Below are positions 1-6,502 of a stretch of DNA of 6,502 nucleotides, piece after piece. The notes beneath the pieces were generated by a model. The model was not told the origin of the DNA, searched no databases, and saw only the letters and a program-made list of their open reading frames with translations. The DNA comes from a virus (lineage: Duplodnaviria > Heunggongvirae > Uroviricota > Caudoviricetes): the IMG/VR virus record IMGVR_UViG_2778261247_000010; one strand, written 5' to 3'. Position numbers and translations under genes: made by a program. Every line of letters starts with the position of its first letter. Within the stretch, counting starts at the first letter, position 1.

Positions 1-2142
1 GAAGGCTCCAGACCAGGTACGCTGAATGATTTTCTCGGTGCCATGACGGAAGATGATGTCATGCCGGAGGCATTGCGTCGTTTTGAGGCAATGGTGGAAG
101 AAGTGGCACGCAACGCCGAAGCCGCCTCTCAGAGCGCAGCGGCGGCAAAGAAATCCGAAACTGCAGCGGCATCATCAAAGAACGCGGCGAAAACCTCAGA
201 AACGAATGCAGCTAATAGTGCACAGGCGGCAGCGACCTCAAAGACTGCATCGGCAAACTCCGCGACAGCAGCCAAAAAATCAGAAACCAACGCGAAAAAT
301 AGCGAGACAGCCGCAAAGACGAGCGAAACCAACGCAAAGTCCAGCCAGACGGCAGCGAAAACCAGCGAAACGAATGCCAAAGCCAGTGAAACTGCGGCAA
401 AAAACAGCCAGGTTGCAGCAGCCCAAAGCGAGAGCGCGGCAGCCGGTTCTGCGACTTCAGCAGCTGGATCAGCAACTGCTGCGGCTAACAGCCAGAAAGC
501 TGCGAAGACGAGTGAAACTAACGCAAAGTCCAGCCAGACGGCAGCGAAGACCAGCGAAACGAATGCCAAAGCCAGCGAAACTGCGGCGAAAAACAGCCAG
601 GTTGCAGCAGCCCAAAGCGAGAGCGCGGCAGCTGGTTCTGCAAGCGCGGCGGCTGCTTCTGCCACTGCATCAGCCAACAGTCAAAAAGCGGCAAAAACCA
701 GTGAAACCAATGCAAAGACAAGCGAGACTGCAGCGGCGAACTCGGCGAAAGCATCGGCAGCAAGCCAGACGGCTGCAAAAGCAAGTGAAGACGCAGCCAG
801 AGAGTATGCAAGCCAGGCTGCGGAGCCGTATAAACAAGTATTGCAGCCGCTTCCCGATGTGTGGATACCGTTTAACGATTCACTGGATATGATTACGGGC
901 TTTTCGCCGTCATATAAAAAGATTGTTATTGGTGATGATGAAATAACGATGCCTGGCGATAAGGTTGTAAAGTTTAAACGCGCATCAAAAGCAACTTACA
1001 TTAATAAATCTGGTGTGCTGACAGAGGCTGCCATTGACGAGCCACGATTTGAACGTGATGGCCTGCTTATTGAGGGGCAAAGAACAAACTACATGCTCAA
1101 TTCGGAAAACCCTGCCAGTTGGGGGCGATCGTCAAATATGGATGTTCCCGAAACCGGGAAGGATAGTTTTGGTTTTACCTATGGAAAGTTCGTCTGTAAC
1201 GATTCTCTGATTGGGCAAACCTCAGCCATTAATATGGCATCAATTGCTGCAACAAAGTCAGTTGATGTCTCAGGCTATAATAAATACGTGACAACCTCAT
1301 GTCGTTTTAAAACAGAACTGCAGGTAAGGTTGCGTATCCGGTTTGATAAATATGACGGTAGCGCAACAACTTTTCTTGGTGATGCGTATATTGATACACA
1401 AACGCTTGAAATTAATATGACAGGCGGTGCTGCCTCAAGGATTACAGCGAGAGTCAGAAAGGACGAAGCTACCGGATGGATTTTTGCAGAGGCAACAATT
1501 CAGGCAATTGATGGGGAGTTAAAAATAGGTTCTCAGATACAGTATTCTCCTAAGCAGGGCGGGGCAACCGTATCTGGTGACTATATTTATCTGGCCACCC
1601 CACAAGTAGAAAATGGGCCTTGTGTATCATCTTTTATTATATCAGGAACGACGGCGGCGACCCGCGCAAGCGATATAGTTACAGTTCCCATTAAGAATAA
1701 TCTTTATAATCTTCCTTTTACGGTTCTTTGTGAGGTACATAAGAACTGGTATAAAACGCCAAATGCAGCGCCGCGTGTTTTTGATACCGGCGGTCATCAA
1801 ACCGGAGCGGCTATTATTCTTGGGTTCGGATCTGCGGCAGATGGGCCAGACGGATTTCCTTATTGCGATATTGGAGGAGCTAACAGACGGGTAAACGAAA
1901 ACGCATCGCTTGAAAAAATGGTTATGGGGATGCGTGTAAAATCAGATCAGTCTACGTGCTCAGTAAGTAACGGGCGCATATCCAGCGAAAAAAAGACTAC
2001 GTGGTCCTATATTCAGAACTCTGCAACCATCCGTATTGGAGGCCAGACTACAGCAGGGTCACGTCATTTATTTGGTCATATCAGGAATTTCAGAATATGG
2101 CATAAGGCATTGACTGATGCTCAGGTGGGGGAGTCAATCTAA
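1..2142 (+). CDS. stf: Side tail fibre protein (Stf-like), 5'-partial: Ala/Ser/Thr-rich repeat shaft plus C-terminal LamG/ConA-like lectin-type domain
   Basis: Frame +1 has no stop from base 1 to the first ATG at 43, so the gene very probably starts upstream of the window (translation from base 1: EGSRPGTLNDFLGAMTEDD...). Nt ~43-830 encode a low-complexity A/S/T/K-rich shaft with reiterated KTSETNAK and AAKNSQ motifs typical of phage tail-fibre repeat regions. The C-terminus (...GSRHLFGHIRNFRIWHKALTDAQVGESI) has the characteristic ending of LamG/ConA-like lectin domains (inference). Stop TAA at 2140-2142. Confidence 0.88.
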   Translation, partial: EGSRPGTLNDFLGAMTEDDVMPEALRRFEAMVEEVARNAEAASQSAAAAKKSETAAASSKNAAKTSETNAANSAQAAATSKTASANSATAAKKSETNAKNSETAAKTSETNAKSSQTAAKTSETNAKASETAAKNSQVAAAQSESAAAGSATSAAGSATAAANSQKAAKTSETNAKSSQTAAKTSETNAKASETAAKNSQVAAAQSESAAAGSASAAAASATASANSQKAAKTSETNAKTSETAAANSAKASAASQTAAKASEDAAREYASQAAEPYKQVLQPLPDVWIPFNDSLDMITGFSPSYKKIVIGDDEITMPGDKVVKFKRASKATYINKSGVLTEAAIDEPRFERDGLLIEGQRTNYMLNSENPASWGRSSNMDVPETGKDSFGFTYGKFVCNDSLIGQTSAINMASIAATKSVDVSGYNKYVTTSCRFKTELQVRLRIRFDKYDGSATTFLGDAYIDTQTLEINMTGGAASRITARVRKDEATGWIFAEATIQAIDGELKIGSQIQYSPKQGGATVSGDYIYLATPQVENGPCVSSFIISGTTAATRASDIVTVPIKNNLYNLPFTVLCEVHKNWYKTPNAAPRVFDTGGHQTGAAIILGFGSAADGPDGFPYCDIGGANRRVNENASLEKMVMGMRVKSDQSTCSVSNGRISSEKKTTWSYIQNSATIRIGGQTTAGSRHLFGHIRNFRIWHKALTDAQVGESI
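313..641 (+). repeat. Intragenic in-frame tandem duplication (two ~140-bp copies, period 189 bp) inside the tail-fibre shaft
   Basis: Copy 1 ~313-452 and copy 2 ~502-641 differ at about 7 positions by eye, all at synonymous third-codon positions (agc/agt, acc/act, aaa/aag, gca/gcg, gcc/gct). Both encode the identical 48-aa block AAKTSETNAKSSQTAAKTSETNAKASETAAKNSQVAAAQSESAAAGSA. Confidence 0.9.
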
Positions 2143-2423
2143 TGAAAGATTTAACACTCAAATTTGCAGACAGGGCCGACTTTTCGGCCTTTATGGAGAG
2201 CACTGGCTATTATGATGACGAGTCGATGCAGGATAATATTCTTATTGACGTGATAGGTAACGTGTACAAAGAAACCGGAGAACTGACTGAAGATGGCGAA
2301 CCGGTATGTGTTAAGGAAGACGGATATTTTGTAAACGTGCGCATCATTAATGATGCAAAAAAATCGTCAATATTCGATAAATACGAGGTTGTTGTTGAGC
2401 ATCAACTTCGTGGCTGGATGTGA
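2142..2423 (+). CDS. Hypothetical small acidic protein (93 aa), translationally coupled to the tail-fibre gene; possible fibre accessory or assembly factor
   Basis: ATG at 2142 shares one base with the upstream TAA (cTAATG). SD GGGGGAG at 2127-2133 with 8-nt spacer. Product is D/E-rich with no hydrophobic segment. No family recognised from sequence alone. Stop TGA at 2421-2423 lies 9 bp before the next gene. Confidence 0.7.
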   Translation: MKDLTLKFADRADFSAFMESTGYYDDESMQDNILIDVIGNVYKETGELTEDGEPVCVKEDGYFVNVRIINDAKKSSIFDKYEVVVEHQLRGWM

Positions 2424-2432
2424 GGGAGACAA

Positions 2433-3473
2433 ATGGCTACATCGACAGTAATTCCTGATGACATCAAAACGCTAAAATCCGACGTTAGCAAATTAAAAAA
2501 CGATCAAGGAAGCTACGCAACAAAATCATATGTAGACAGCAAAGATGAAACCGTTGGTGACTGGTCTGCTTCATGGTATCAGCAGGTATTGCCAACTAGC
2601 GGAGCTATATTTGGGAGAAAACTCCGCTCAACTCACAGGACGGCAGGTGTTGAGGATGCGTATTGCGAACTATATCTCAAAAAATGGATAGACAGTCCAG
2701 GTAACGCAATGGCGCGCCTTAACCTGAACGATAACGGGAAAAACATTTGCTGGGACTTTACCAACCTTTATGGCGGTACGATGATTTTTCCCGGTGACAG
2801 CGGATACCTCAAAATGGGTAACTGCCTTATGTCATACAGCAAACGTGGAAGTAACGCGCTTATTAAATTTGATTACACCGACACATTACAGATCAAATAT
2901 GCTAATCATGGGTCAACCATGACATTAACCACACAGGGATCCGCTCACGCTGGCGTAACAACTAGACTATGGGGTAATTCTAGCCGTCCGGTTGTTTATG
3001 AAGTTGGCGTAGATGAGGCTCTGTATATGTTCTACGCACAGAAAACTACCAGCAATACCTACGAATTAACGGTTAACGGCGCGTGCAATGCAAGTGCATT
3101 TAATCAAGGCTCTGACCGGGATCTGAAAGACAATATTCAGGTGATCGATAATGCAACCGACCGCATTCGTAAAATGAACGGCTATACATACACGCTTAAA
3201 GAAAACGGTATGCCTTACGCTGGTGTTATTGCACAAGAAACCCTGGAAGCCATCCCCGAAGCCGTAGGGTCTATGATGAAATATCCAGACGGCGGGAGTG
3301 GATTAGATGGAGAAGAAGGTGAACGGTATTACACAGTAGATTATTCTGGTGTTACTGGCTTGCTTGTTCAGGTAGCCAGAGAGTCGGACGACAGAATAAC
3401 AGCACTGGAAGAAGAAAACGCAGAATTAAGACAAAGATTATCTGCAATTGAGGCGGCGCTTGCGTCTAAATAA
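2433..3473 (+). CDS. Tail fibre/tailspike-like protein with C-terminal self-cleaving intramolecular chaperone domain (peptidase S74-like)
   Basis: SD GAGGGAG at 2422-2428, ATG at 2433. From Ser227 (nt 3111) the sequence G-S-D-R-D-L-K-D-N-I-Q-V-I-D-N-A-T-D-R-I-R-K-M-N-G-Y-T-Y-T-L-K...AGVIAQE...PEAV shows the Ser/Lys dyad spaced five residues apart (S227, K232) and downstream motifs typical of the S74 chaperone domain of endosialidases and L-shaped tail fibres. Ends in a coiled-coil-like segment ITALEEENAELRQRLSAIEAALASK. The N-terminal ~226 aa would be the mature fibre part. Confidence 0.75.
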   Translation: MATSTVIPDDIKTLKSDVSKLKNDQGSYATKSYVDSKDETVGDWSASWYQQVLPTSGAIFGRKLRSTHRTAGVEDAYCELYLKKWIDSPGNAMARLNLNDNGKNICWDFTNLYGGTMIFPGDSGYLKMGNCLMSYSKRGSNALIKFDYTDTLQIKYANHGSTMTLTTQGSAHAGVTTRLWGNSSRPVVYEVGVDEALYMFYAQKTTSNTYELTVNGACNASAFNQGSDRDLKDNIQVIDNATDRIRKMNGYTYTLKENGMPYAGVIAQETLEAIPEAVGSMMKYPDGGSGLDGEEGERYYTVDYSGVTGLLVQVARESDDRITALEEENAELRQRLSAIEAALASK

Positions 3474-3478
3474 TATTA

Positions 3479-3502
3479 AGGGGCCGAGCGCCCCGTTTTA
3501 TT
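3479..3502 (+). terminator. Rho-independent terminator after the fibre operon
   Basis: GC hairpin GGGGC-cgagc-GCCCC (3480-3494) followed by GTTTTATT, immediately after the TAA stop at 3471-3473. Confidence 0.6.
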
Positions 3503-3515
3503 GGGTAGGATGAAA

Positions 3516-3803
3516 ATGGATATAACACCTTTCCTTCATGCACTTTGTGCTGTGGCTGCGCAGCTACTGATTGGTCTTTTTACCGGGAACTGGGCTTACG
3601 GGGCGATAGCCGGTTGTACGTTCTTCATTGCGCGTGAACACACCCAGGCAGAATATCGCTGGATTGAAATGTTCGGGCATGGCAAGCGTATGAATATGCC
3701 GTGGTGGGGCGGTTTTGATCTACGCGCGTGGGATGTAGCAAGCCTGATGGATTTTGCTGTGCCGGTGGTGGCGTGTTTACTTGTATTTATATTTTTTGAA
3801 TAA
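3516..3803 (+). CDS. Small integral membrane protein (~95 aa, three predicted hydrophobic helices); moron-type accessory gene candidate
   Basis: The ORF track begins at TTG 3501 (MGRMKMDIT...). ATG at 3516 preceded by AGGA (3507-3510, 5-nt spacer) is the better supported start; ATG 3510 is also possible. Hydrophobic segments FLHALCAVAAQLLIGLF, AYGAIAGCTFFIA and LMDFAVPVVACLLVFIFF. No family recognised. Stop TAA at 3801-3803. The gene is bracketed by hairpin terminators on both sides. Confidence 0.65.
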   Translation: MDITPFLHALCAVAAQLLIGLFTGNWAYGAIAGCTFFIAREHTQAEYRWIEMFGHGKRMNMPWWGGFDLRAWDVASLMDFAVPVVACLLVFIFFE

Positions 3804-3808
3804 AATTA

Positions 3809-3835
3809 AGACCCCATCTATAACTGATGGGGTCT
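3809..3835. terminator. Bidirectional intrinsic terminator between convergent genes (membrane-protein ORF and sopB)
   Basis: Perfect 10-bp stem AGACCCCATC (3809-3818) / GATGGGGTCT (3826-3835) with 7-nt loop TATAACT. T-rich runs follow on both strands (ATTCTATTTTCT on +; TAATTTTATT on -). Sits between the + strand stop at 3803 and the - strand sopB stop at 3852-3854. Confidence 0.8.
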
Positions 3836-3851: not shown

Positions 3852-4841
3852 TTAGTTATTTTTTACATCGGAAGAATTTCCAAACGCCTCCTCAAGAATA
3901 GATTCAATTTTACTCATTAGGTGCGATGGTATTTTTCTGTTATCTAATTTTAATGTTGTGAAATTTTTCCCATATTTCGCCACAACACCGTCTCCATATT
4001 TCTTTTCCCTTTTCTCTCCATGTGAATTGTTTTTCTCAACAATAATGAAATCATGAAGAGCCTGTATTATTCTTTGCGCATCTAAACTTTCACCTGATTT
4101 TTTCATCCTCAGCAACTGAGATGCAGCATTTTTCATGGCTGCTTCCTGTCCCTGATATGCTTTAAAAAGAGCGTCTCCTGCTCTGGCTGATAACTCACCA
4201 GGATGGTTAAATATTGCCAATATATCTTTAGGTAAACCGGCTGTATTAATACATCGGCTGATAATATTTCTATCCACGCCTTCGGCTTCAGCTAAAGATT
4301 TTACGTTACCGTCAAATTCATGGAGCCTTCGCAGGTATCTTTTCCCCCTTTCATAGGCGCTGATAGGTCTATAGTCGTTGCCTATCTGCGATAACCATTG
4401 CATTTGTTCATCATCTAAATCGCCAATAAGAACACGATAATCGCATCCAGTTATAATGGCTGCTTTACGTCTTCGAGAACCATCAGCTACTTCAACAATA
4501 CCTGACACTTTTCTTGCGAAAGCCGGATTTTGTTGCCCAGAAGTTAGAAAAGATGGAATTAAATCAGCTAGAGAAGATTCATTTAATAAATCTTGATCAC
4601 GCTCATTACCTAGCCATACCATTGTTGCCATTTCTACTTTATCTGCGGGGATCGTCTCTAACTTAAAGTTAACATTACGTCCGCATACTGGCAAAGTTAT
4701 GCTATTACCGGTTAATGAACTCAGTTGACGTTTTAAATCACCAACCATAGGTGATACCGGCTGATGTTCAGGTGCATGATGATTATTACTCATAATGCGA
4801 TTAATATCCGGAGCATTTTTTAGAAGAGAGCGTTGTTTCAT
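3852..4841 (-). CDS. sopB: Plasmid partition protein SopB (ParB family, F-type centromere-binding protein)
   Basis: 329 aa. By-eye similarity to F-plasmid SopB over conserved blocks (GNERDQ.LL.E..L.DLIPSFL.TGQQ.PAF.R.VSG..E.ADGSRRRKAA; GNDYRP.SAYERG.RY; RCINTA.LPK...A.F.HPGELSAR.GDAL.KA). SD GGGAG 8 nt upstream of the start. ATG at 4839-4841 overlaps the sopA stop (ATGA, 4838-4841), implying translational coupling. Confidence 0.95.
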   Translation of the reverse strand: MKQRSLLKNAPDINRIMSNNHHAPEHQPVSPMVGDLKRQLSSLTGNSITLPVCGRNVNFKLETIPADKVEMATMVWLGNERDQDLLNESSLADLIPSFLTSGQQNPAFARKVSGIVEVADGSRRRKAAIITGCDYRVLIGDLDDEQMQWLSQIGNDYRPISAYERGKRYLRRLHEFDGNVKSLAEAEGVDRNIISRCINTAGLPKDILAIFNHPGELSARAGDALFKAYQGQEAAMKNAASQLLRMKKSGESLDAQRIIQALHDFIIVEKNNSHGEKREKKYGDGVVAKYGKNFTTLKLDNRKIPSHLMSKIESILEEAFGNSSDVKNN

Positions 4842-6007
4842 TCTTCGTTCTCCCAGCGAGGTTTTATTAGATCATCAAAAATTTCTCGACAAACAGGGTC
4901 CCATATAGAGACGGCATTTCTCCATGCATTAAGTGTTGAACGCTGGTTTGCCGCTTGTTCAAATACTGTTCGCATTTTTATCTGACCTTTACCTACTTCA
5001 TCGGTAACGCGTACAACCTGACGTAATACCATTGATCCCCATGTATTTCTTATTTGCTCTTCCATCCATCGTGATTGATTTCCTGTAGTGAGACTATATT
5101 TAGTCAGAAGCAAGCGAACGGTCGGCTCAAATCCGCCTAGGTCAACGCTTTCTAGGAGATCGAGAAGCATTGTGAAAAACTGTAGAACAGAGGCGTAATC
5201 AAATAATTCTGCAGGGGTAGCAACAACGATAACGTCAGCTGCGCAAACAACGTTAATGGTTCCTGTACCGAGGTTTGGAGCACTATCTATAACGATAACA
5301 TCGTAGTTATCCCAAACTGATTCTATAGCTGCGCGTAGCATCAGGTGAGGAGGGTGAGGCAATTTACCCTGAGCATGATATTGCATGAGATCTGTTTCTA
5401 TACGGTGTAAAGCTAGGCAGCTAGGAATAATGTCCAGTCCAGGCCAGCATGTTGGTTTTATAGCATATTCAGCGTTATCGCGTTCGCCCAAGTAAAATGG
5501 CAGTAAAGTATCCTCGGCATGTATATGTAAATCAGGTACATAACCGTGATACATGGAGGCTGTTCCCTGAGGATCGTTACCTTCAACTAAAAGAACACGA
5601 TGACCTTGTAATGCTAGCCATTGTGCCTGATGTACTGCAGACGATGTTTTATAAACTCCGCCTTTGTGTGACATAACAGCAAGCACAACTGGGTTTTTAT
5701 CTTGTGGCCGTTGGTTTGGGTTGCCAAAAACAGCTCGCATACTATTGATTTGATCTATGGTATAACCGGCACGACGTTCAACTCTTCCTCTCATTTCAAA
5801 GTCAGGTGCAGGTAAACGCCCGTTCTTCTCAGCATCTCTTATTGCTTGAGGAGTTACACCAATTAAATCTGCTACTTCAGTTATCCCCCATCTACGCGTG
5901 ATACGCCGAGCTTCAGGACTATCATCACCGAATTGAGCTATAGCAATTGCTTGGGTCATTTCTTGACCGCGCGTAACACAATCTTGTAATAACTTTTTCA
6001 AAGACAT
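4838..6007 (-). CDS. sopA: Plasmid partition ATPase SopA (type Ia ParA with N-terminal HTH autoregulatory extension)
   Basis: 389 aa. Deviant Walker A KGGVYKTS, A' region VLLVEGNDPQGTASMYHG, Walker B DVIVIDSAPNLG. N-terminal region ...AIAIAQFGDDSPEARRITRRWGITEVADLIGVTPQAIRDAEKNGRLP... is near-colinear with F SopA as recalled. SD GGAG (minus strand, + coordinates 6016-6019) 8 nt before the ATG at 6007. Confidence 0.96.
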   Translation of the reverse strand: MSLKKLLQDCVTRGQEMTQAIAIAQFGDDSPEARRITRRWGITEVADLIGVTPQAIRDAEKNGRLPAPDFEMRGRVERRAGYTIDQINSMRAVFGNPNQRPQDKNPVVLAVMSHKGGVYKTSSAVHQAQWLALQGHRVLLVEGNDPQGTASMYHGYVPDLHIHAEDTLLPFYLGERDNAEYAIKPTCWPGLDIIPSCLALHRIETDLMQYHAQGKLPHPPHLMLRAAIESVWDNYDVIVIDSAPNLGTGTINVVCAADVIVVATPAELFDYASVLQFFTMLLDLLESVDLGGFEPTVRLLLTKYSLTTGNQSRWMEEQIRNTWGSMVLRQVVRVTDEVGKGQIKMRTVFEQAANQRSTLNAWRNAVSIWDPVCREIFDDLIKPRWENEE

Positions 6008-6294: not shown

Positions 6295-6437
6295 AAAGAA
6301 CACAATCAAAGATCGTAAAACAACAATAATAATTCACACAAAATAAAGAACACAAATACAGAAAACAACAACACAATAAAAACAAGAGAACACAAGCTAT
6401 AAATATTACACCAATAGAGAACACTAATCAAGAACAT
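6295..6437 (+). repeat. Array of phased GAACAC(A) direct repeats in an A+C-rich tract flanking the telomere-resolution palindrome (candidate protelomerase or accessory binding sites)
   Basis: GAACACAA at 6298-6305, 6348-6355 and 6388-6395; GAACAC at 6419-6424; GAACAT at 6432-6437, the last inside the palindrome arm. Start-to-start spacing is 50, 40, 31 and 13 bp. The + strand of ~6288-6426 is roughly 80% A+C by eye. Confidence 0.7.
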
Positions 6438-6502
6438 ATCAGCACATAATTTCCCATTATACGCGCGTATAATGGGAAATTATGTGCTGATATGTTCTTG
6501 AT
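6427..6502. other. Telomere resolution site (tos/telRL-like protelomerase target): perfect 76-bp palindrome
   Basis: Arms 6427-6464 (ATCAAGAACATATCAGCACATAATTTCCCATTATACGC) and 6465-6502 are exact reverse complements, centred on ACGCGCGT. The core TATCAGCACAtAATTtCCCATTATACGCGCGTATAATGG closely matches the N15 telRL as I recall it, with the central telO-like segment identical. The palindrome reaches the last base of the window. Confidence 0.8.

Follow-up and report, generated by a model that had tools for sequence, protein, structure and literature searches.

What is a gene for a very small membrane protein doing at the end of a phage tail module? The question is raised by a stretch of 6,502 nucleotides from the virus record IMGVR_UViG_2778261247_000010 of IMG/VR (hereafter the window), in which such a gene, 95 codons long, lies between a tail fibre gene and the partition gene sopB. 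From the letters alone, the original prediction had described it as a candidate moron, insulated by two terminators, whose product could modify or block the cognate receptor or DNA entry. We report that the gene belongs to a family found immediately 3′ of a receptor-binding protein (RBP) gene, usually in the same operon, in siphophages, myophages and podophages. This rule of context is our main new result, the family itself having already been catalogued as phrog_1443. The function most likely indicated by the sequences is an alteration of the cell envelope, by which phage infection or reinfection would be controlled.

Position behind receptor-binding protein genes

The open frame, on the + strand, ends at 3803 and offers candidate starts at 3501, 3510 and 3516. 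Its biological start is the ATG at 3516 (MDITPF...), which gives a product of 95 amino acids (aa), because an AGGA lies at 3507-3510, the homologues all begin with MD(I/L/F/W)(T/S)P, and the same coding sequence (CDS) is annotated in Escherichia phage PhiR46_1 (PV340565). This phage, to which the region of interest is 99.2% identical, is a linear plasmid-prophage of the N15-like kind, with telL and telR at its ends and with head and tail genes of the lambda type. With the phrog_1443 hidden Markov model (HMM; PHROGs v4), an E value of 6.3e-56 was obtained, residues 3-95 being aligned on profile positions 1-93 of 97. The original prediction had recognised no family; the HMM search supplies one, of which the window gene is a bona fide full-length member, although the family itself has no assigned function and membership gives no mechanism. 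We found 512 homologues of the protein, and comparison with eight E. coli copies gave a ratio of non-synonymous to synonymous substitutions (dN/dS) of 0.07-0.22. Given the full-length match, the homologues and this ratio, the open reading frame (ORF) is a real, constrained gene and not a chance frame.

To analyse the context of the family we used an alignment of distant members, by which 61 distinct and diverse viral loci were retrieved. A same-strand upstream gene lies within 100 nt in 57 of the 61, and the nearest or second-nearest upstream gene encodes a protein of at least 340 aa in 54. Same-strand neighbours number 58: the start codon is overlapped by 22 of them, and another 22 lie at 0-15 nt, so that 44/58 (76%) overlap or abut. 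RBP domains were recognised in the 77 upstream proteins, namely Peptidase_S74 (15), phage_tail_N (7), CarboxypepD_reg (7), pectate-lyase (6), Phage_tail_fib (5), Tail_spike_N (3), endosialidase (3), GDSL esterase (2) and P22 head-binding (1). Since a random phage gene would have an RBP gene upstream in only a few per cent of cases, this linkage is not due to chance. The downstream genes are mixed (UmuD-like proteins, repressors, the Avd of diversity-generating retroelements, unknowns), and an all-against-all clustering of the neighbouring ORFs from 64 genome loci revealed no conserved partner gene.

The position directly after receptor-binding genes, correctly noted in the original prediction, takes various forms. 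It recurs in lambda-like phages, while in HP1/P2-like prophages of Aeromonas and Leclercia the gene stands 0-1 nt behind the fibre gene or overlaps it by 4 nt. It is found between the fibre-assembly (Tfa) and sheath genes of phiHAP-1, between a pectate-lyase tailspike and the small terminase in a T7-like podovirus contig, and, in a Comamonas siphoprophage, behind gpJ, from which a 72-aa gene separates it, and ahead of a lysis cassette.

The family is large. A profile search of 1.84 billion representative proteins gave 418 clusters (50% identity) at E<=1e-3, the best 150 of which are all stand-alone proteins of 57-146 aa, with no fusion hinting at a function. A matching sequence is present in 1904 of the 5426 complete E. 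coli genomes (35%), at a median of two places per positive genome. Other hosts are Aeromonas, Leclercia, Silvania, Pantoea, Comamonas, Acidovorax, Halomonas, many Sphingomonadaceae and Desulfovibrio, so the range extends from alpha- to delta-proteobacteria, over four proteobacterial classes. The motif H...RExxQAEYR...MPWWGGF, with six invariant polar residues in 95 aa, is kept throughout, Sphingomonadaceae included. Its invariant core is made of H8, R40, E41, Q44, A45, E46, (Y47), R48, W72 and P83, and its well-conserved loop reads G-x-G-K/R-R-x-N-M-P-W-W-G-G-F-D (M61-P-W-W-G-G-F67 in the window protein). The names given elsewhere, 'FIG00639861' in RAST annotations and 'Ybl63' in one UniProt entry, are uninformative. 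In Pfam only PhoR came up, below cut-off (E 0.11), and ten distant members matched nothing there; NCBIfam gave nothing informative, and the PADLOC component models gave 0 families at E<=10.

An AlphaFold2 model (71-sequence alignment, mean predicted local distance difference test score 92.9) contains helices at residues 4-23, 26-52 and 74-94. The protein had been announced as a three-helix membrane protein of about 95 aa: the length and the three helices stand, but on the Kyte-Doolittle scale only helices 1 and 3 pass the 19-residue transmembrane threshold, helix 2 consisting of 13-14 apolar residues followed by the polar stretch REHTQAEYRW. As modelled, the product is a small helical integral protein of the inner membrane. 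The window copy has two peculiarities. Codon 69 (3720-3722) encodes Leu instead of the Pro (FDPRAW) of PhiR46_1 and nearly all relatives. Beyond 3776, inside the CDS, the window copy no longer resembles most other phage copies (Table 1), and the C-terminal LLVFIFFE, shared with PhiR46_1, lacks the usual basic tail.

Transcription and insulation of the gene

A moron, by the Juhala/Hendrix definition restated in PMC3594210, has its own promoter, its own terminator and a deviating GC content, and is expressed from the prophage. Applied to our locus, this would mean a transcription unit that runs from a promoter at the fibre stop codon to a terminator at 3809-3835, with the hairpin at 3480-3494 shielding from the late operon a gene that is expressed from the repressed prophage. 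Hairpins are indeed found on both sides of the gene (-10.1 and -18.8 kcal/mol; Table 1), in a window where terminator-like sites number 13 vs 5.9 +/- 3.2 in shuffled sequences. The downstream one, said to be a bidirectional terminator shared with sopB, has the features of one: it lies between the convergent genes, 6 nt past the stop codon of the membrane-protein gene and 17 nt past that of sopB, and a terminator is annotated at the equivalent place in the N15 record.

The upstream hairpin is a different matter. It was thought to close the fibre operon, leaving the next gene to sit alone. Its stem is short, it is a candidate weak intrinsic terminator or attenuator, and in relatives the gene is joined to the fibre operon. 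Furthermore, the intergenic space is only 42 nt, so there is no room for a promoter after the hairpin. A speculative sigma-70-like match (8-9/12) does span the fibre stop codon; a transcript initiated there would start in the 5′ arm of the hairpin and hence could not form it, as the moron proposal would have it. However, equally weak matches were found in the unrelated upstream genes of other phages.

The origin of the hairpin became apparent from the 80 closest prophage loci of IMG/VR, all from E. coli. The exact hairpin is present in 35 of them, all behind the 346-aa S74 fibre and with the 42-nt gap, whereas about 37 of the same 80 have a gap of 10-13 nt and no hairpin. Because of this strict association, the sequences indicate that the hairpin is part of the S74-fibre cassette and not of the membrane-protein gene, and this cassette looks as if it had been inserted between the phrog_1361 gene and the membrane-protein gene. 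In three diverged IMG/VR loci (L194, L200 and L210), GC-rich hairpins of -14 to -31 kcal/mol, without clear U-tracts, also lie between the RBP and membrane-protein genes. Such hairpins may recur as attenuators, or as elements of mRNA stability, and so fix how much of each product is made relative to the other.

Comparison with other phages gives a similar picture. When the window was compared by megablast with 50,697 phage records, only 3507-3776 proved common to it and to phages whose upstream gene differs. This block comprises the ribosome-binding site (RBS) and the CDS without the final nine codons, and includes neither of the hairpins. The gene's own terminator is thus present, yet outside the block common to the phages. 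In Lambda_2E9 and mEp460_4F5 the gene starts 12 nt after the phrog_1361 gene, and in IdasGreatGrand 10 nt after a 234-aa gene, each time with a strong AAGGAGG; the TAGGA of the window copy is weaker than the AAGGAGG of these hairpin-less relatives. Base composition does not deviate either, with a GC content of 0.490 (0.469 at third codon positions) vs 0.487 for stf and 0.445 for the S74 fibre gene.

The gene is nevertheless polymorphic, as a moron should be: only 73 of the 50,697 records carry it, lambda-like phages and N15 are without it, and in N15 the slot is occupied by a umuD-like gene. To judge from these sequences, the slot after the fibre genes of N15-like phages is a variable accessory slot. 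Therefore, of the insulated moron, the terminator and the presence/absence polymorphism hold, while the GC content is ordinary and no convincing promoter was found. Since in 76% of the diverse loci it overlaps the preceding RBP gene or follows it closely, the sequences point to co-transcription with the late tail genes rather than to an insulated unit expressed in the lysogen. The orphan chromosomal copies described below, which have their own upstream regions, are a further argument for autonomy; all considered, the autonomous moron is the foremost of the alternatives but an improbable one.

Function of the protein

Copies of the gene also exist outside prophages. In Aeromonas aquatica, A. 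media and A. taiwanensis a copy lies between pirin and RIO kinase genes; in five Leclercia genomes it is found near dcp, a gene for a Bor-like lipoprotein, a MetE-like gene and urtA; and in three Silvania/Leclercia genomes it adjoins a porin gene. With a dN/dS of 0.09-0.23, at proportions of synonymous differences of 0.3-0.5, these orphan copies amid housekeeping genes are under purifying selection. They form a subgroup (loci L014, L016, L019 and L020 in Aeromonas, L015, L021, L022, L024 and L027 in Leclercia, L018, L025 and L028 in Silvania/Leclercia) in which His42 is replaced by Gln (AREQTQAEYRW; L018 keeps His), the basic C-tails are longer and the total length is 102-115 aa. The Leclercia copy beside the Bor-like lipoprotein is possibly the last remains of a decayed prophage.

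Exclusion or conversion is, in our analysis, the best available class of explanation, and our best guess, held with modest confidence, is an autonomous envelope-acting factor of this class, co-expressed with the RBP. More precisely, we give a probability of about 0.35 to an exclusion at the receptor level, through a generic effect on the display of surface-glycan receptors. The gene would be the last cistron of a late unit of about 27 kb (holin ... J-lom-stf-1361-S74 fibre-membrane gene), transcribed by read-through of the weak 3480-3494 hairpin, which may attenuate the level of product, as far as the strong bidirectional hairpin that also serves sopB. In the lysogen, the promoter-like site at 3448-3477 might give a low level of expression. 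The protein would insert into the cytoplasmic membrane and act alone, without any virion part, by means of a cluster of invariant polar residues at one membrane face (H8, R40, E41, Q44, E46 and R48) together with the MPWWGGF loop. It might interfere in a generic way with a conserved lipid-linked step of surface-glycan supply, any specific target being a guess, and fewer glycans would then be displayed for fibres and tailspikes, whatever the glycan structure.

The receptor-glycan reading is favoured because the linkage to glycan-active RBPs parallels the placement of O-antigen conversion genes, and because exclusion genes adjoin RBP loci; HK97 gp15, an exclusion protein of the inner membrane (PMC3594210), is another precedent. 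The constrained orphan copies and, conversely, the decay of the gene in virulent HC6-like phages (see below) support an autonomous action in uninfected cells, as far as sequences can tell. Independence from fibre type and host is likewise suggested by the E. coli copies, 88-99% identical behind three different upstream genes, and by the motif, invariant across classes. The same constancy is at odds with a blocker fitted to the cognate receptor, as had been proposed: because the sequence barely varies between fibre types, the protein cannot be one tailored to that receptor. A receptor-specific blocker of the Cor/Llp kind was excluded on the same ground, no co-variation with the RBP, and for lack of a lipobox. 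A target specific for lipopolysaccharide (LPS), such as lipid A, WaaL or Lpt, was set aside as unlikely, the family being common in Sphingomonadaceae, which are not known to make LPS.

Several observations weigh against the receptor-glycan reading. The tight coupling to a late gene speaks against the prophage-state expression that classical exclusion or conversion needs, and a stop of glycan supply late in infection would leave the surface glycans in place. Intact copies are present in apparently virulent phages, namely the T7-like contig, jumbo Aeromonas phages and Aeromonas phage 62AhydR11PP, where the copy lies among small early-like genes. The topology signals conflict: by the positive-inside rule the conserved loop, with 5.2 K+R on average, points to the cytoplasm, while the variable C-tail, often strongly basic (up to 7 K/R in alphaproteobacterial members), implies the opposite orientation. 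Neither a sequence profile search of the PDB, which gave nothing informative, nor a search for fold neighbours, which gave no convincing one, provided a handle on the target, and no paper on the family and no transcript data were found in the literature. A paper on a lambdoid-prophage small RNA (sRNA) was dropped as irrelevant, the sRNA lying in cI.

Among virulent phages, Escherichia phage HC6 and at least four similar siphophages contain an unannotated, decayed remnant of 51 aa (…RRRANIPWWGGFDWRAWDLPSLLD, locus 3938-4093), directly behind an 859-aa fibre gene with an S74-type C-terminus. It appears that this trailing gene was imported with the fibre cassette and then decayed.

A bolder version of the receptor-glycan reading can be formulated, to which we give little credence as a whole. 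The invariant H...RExxQAEYR...MPWWGGF face would bind or process a universally conserved lipid-linked envelope intermediate, for instance an undecaprenyl-(pyro)phosphate-linked glycan; the family would be a hitherto unrecognised, near-universal companion of RBP genes, whichever of the three tail types a proteobacterial phage has, switching off the display of glycan receptors independently of their structure, and would have been domesticated repeatedly by bacteria.

We rank below the glycan-display reading, and consider improbable, a phage-specific block of genome entry of the HK97 gp15, T4 Imm or P22 SieA type, in which the protein would meet the incoming tail tip or tape-measure protein at the cytoplasmic membrane and prevent channel formation. 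In its favour, the protein is, like gp15 (PMC3594210), a small inner-membrane protein of a tail operon, and it is autonomous and kept in chromosomes. However, the known entry blockers are of narrow range and evolve fast, whereas the motif of our family is invariant over four classes and three tail morphotypes; moreover the linkage is to RBP genes and not to tape-measure or ejection genes, and the searches of PHROGs and Pfam gave no similarity to gp15/YebO, Imm or SieA. We give a comparably low chance to a host-physiology factor unrelated to phage resistance, acting, like many small membrane proteins, in envelope stress or in the regulation of a membrane enzyme or sensor, for which the RBP position would be just a permissive site of insertion or recombination. 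Cargo is known to settle where tail modules end, for example between G and FI in P2 and where the b-region of lambdoids begins. The recombination junction inside the 3′ end of the CDS and the conservation of orphan copies across species go in the same direction, but the frequent start/stop overlaps and the positions in mid-operon (Tfa/sheath in phiHAP-1, fibre/terminase in the T7-like contig) exceed what a passive cargo needs.

A role in lysis, as holin, antiholin or other timing protein, is very doubtful. It is suggested by the small size with two or three transmembrane helices and by the T7-like contig, whose copy occupies the slot between fibre and small terminase where T7 has its holin gp17.5. 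Adjacency to a lysis cassette is seen in the Comamonas prophages only, the gene preceding two membrane proteins, a probable endolysin and an Rz-like spanin. That the protein acts as a holin is unlikely because PhiR46_1 is already equipped with a holin-lysozyme-Rz cassette, located 27 kb upstream, because no holin family of Pfam or PHROGs matched at E<=10, and because stand-alone chromosomal copies under purifying selection are hard to square with a lethal holin; in addition, holins have short loops where this family has a long invariant one, and the window copy has no charged C-tail. More generally, the HMM and structure checks proposed with the original prediction matched no structural virion or lysis family. 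Equally remote is a membrane-tethered assembly or quality-control factor for the fibre or tailspike, made in step with the RBP: despite the translational coupling, the place usually taken by a tail-fibre assembly chaperone and the self-cleaving S74 chaperone domains of many partner RBPs, such a role is unlikely because the same protein stands behind unrelated RBPs and persists without any RBP nearby, let alone that the fibres of tailed phages assemble in the cytoplasm and that the 62AhydR11PP copy has early-like neighbours.

Neighbouring elements and known systems

The features of the window are listed in Table 1.

Table 1. Features of the window around the membrane-protein gene (coordinates from the first nucleotide of the window).
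Feature	Position	Strand	Remarks
stf, side tail fibre	43..2142	+	phage_tail_N, phrog_1419; 5′ end cut by window
phrog_1361 protein, 93 aa, function unknown	2142..2423	+	PHROGs match
Tail fibre, 346 aa, with C-terminal Peptidase_S74 intramolecular chaperone	2433..3473	+	phrog_4563; upstream neighbour
Sigma-70-like match TTGAGG-N15-18-AATAAT/TAATAT/AATATT	3448..3477	+	8-9/12, spans fibre stop codon; speculative
GC hairpin GGGGC-CGAGC-GCCCC	3480..3494, with GTTTTATT to 3502	+	5-bp stem, 5-nt loop, free energy -10.1 kcal/mol; candidate weak terminator or attenuator (3480-3502)
Shine-Dalgarno-like TAGGA	3506..3510	+	AGGA at 3507-3510; 5 nt before ATG 3516
Membrane-protein CDS, 95 aa	3516..3803	+	phrog_1443
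Recombination junction inside CDS	3776..3803	+	Last 9 codons (LLVFIFFE) replace usual LLVWLLVNRG / LLIWMLIR tail
Bidirectional terminator hairpin	3809..3835	.	10-bp stem, free energy -18.8 kcal/mol, T-rich on both strands
sopB/parB	3852..4841	-	SoPB_HTH; convergent with membrane-protein gene
sopA	4838..6007		ParA-type ATPase; order stf-1361-S74 fibre-membrane gene-sopB-sopA-telomere palindrome

On the fibre side, stf contains at 264-735 a 189-bp unit repeated 2.3 times (85% matches), itself made of 21- and 42-bp sub-repeats. The region encodes five KTSETNAK repeats in an Ala/Ser/Thr-rich shaft, liable to length variation. The phrog_1361 protein has no Pfam match; in E. coli lambdoids its gene always lies between stf and the membrane-protein gene, and variable fibre-tip genes (346-aa S74 type or ~230-aa type) are inserted between these last two. 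The order stf-1361-[tip]-membrane protein looks like a cassette slot.

On the other side, the window ends with a telomere palindrome at 6427-6502 (core CCCATTATACGCGCGTATAATGGG, N15 telRL-like), a perfect inverted repeat with 38/38 matches per arm. It reaches the last base of the window, while the PhiR46_1 record stops at its centre (telR); the end of the window is either an uncut telRL site or a read-through around the hairpin telomere, a possible assembly artefact. Between sopA and the telomere, the non-coding segment 6008-6440 has a GC content of 0.29 and repeated AGAGAACAC/AAGAACA-like words, and may be home to the sopA promoter/operator or to centromere-like or protelomerase-accessory sites. 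Finally, the early region of PhiR46_1 (3086-3373 of its locus, outside the window) has a gene annotated as 'Spackle exclusion protein'; if this annotation is correct, the phage has an exclusion gene besides the membrane-protein gene.

We consider the gene a worthwhile target, given its near-obligatory position after the RBP gene, its deep conservation and its domesticated chromosomal copies. Though widespread, the family is absent from Pfam, NCBIfam and PADLOC as well as from the literature, and its 95-aa product is compact and easy to test. Should the protein prove to govern receptor display or entry, few of the modifiers of phage susceptibility that prophages bring to E. coli would be commoner. 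This would have a bearing on the prediction of host range in phage therapy and on engineering by tail-fibre swaps, since the gene moves along with the fibre cassette and even provides the cassette with a recombination arm on the 3′ side.

How does the protein compare with known systems? To class I holins (lambda S105) and T7 gp17.5 it is similar in size (about 100 aa) and number of transmembrane helices (up to 3), and one homologue sits in the gp17.5 slot, in keeping with T7 gene order, where gp17.5 lies between the tail-fibre and small-terminase genes. The family differs from these holins by the absence of homology, by its long invariant loop and by its stable chromosomal orphans, and PhiR46_1 has a separate holin.

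HK97 gp15, the first described moron, is an inner-membrane superinfection-exclusion protein (PMC3594210). Like the window protein, it is a small membrane protein encoded in a lambdoid tail cluster, autonomous, and with relatives in non-prophage chromosomal settings (YebO; PMC3594210). The two have no sequence relationship, however, and gp15 has its own promoter and terminator, lies beside the tape-measure gene and is confined to Enterobacteriaceae, whereas the phrog_1443 family is operonic with RBP genes in four proteobacterial classes.

Exclusion genes adjoin RBP genes in Drexlerviridae (PMC8594841), and on the N15 map cor is gene 24, beside RBP genes. Cor (phi80, N15 gene 24, T1) and Llp (T5) offer a parallel in genomic logic, in that the exclusion gene moves together with the receptor-binding module (PMC8594841). 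They are, however, outer-membrane lipoproteins matched to one protein receptor, FhuA. The window protein, unlike them, is polytopic, without signal peptide, and does not vary with the RBP; its N-terminus MDITPFLHAL contains no lipobox, and no match to the Cor/Llp family was found.

O-antigen conversion genes are found directly after tailspike genes, as for gtrABC of P22 and epsilon34, genes 21-22 of epsilon15, oac of Sf6 and iap of D3; they are expressed from the prophage and are serotype-specific. The window protein differs from their products in that it matches no GtrA, acyltransferase or glycosyltransferase family (nor, in the same searches of Pfam, PHROGs and NCBIfam, the Sie family). The likeness lies in the arrangement: inner-membrane proteins that alter the glycan recognised by the RBP are encoded 3′ of the RBP gene, and many partner RBPs of phrog_1443 carry glycan-active domains, as in the setting of O-antigen conversion.

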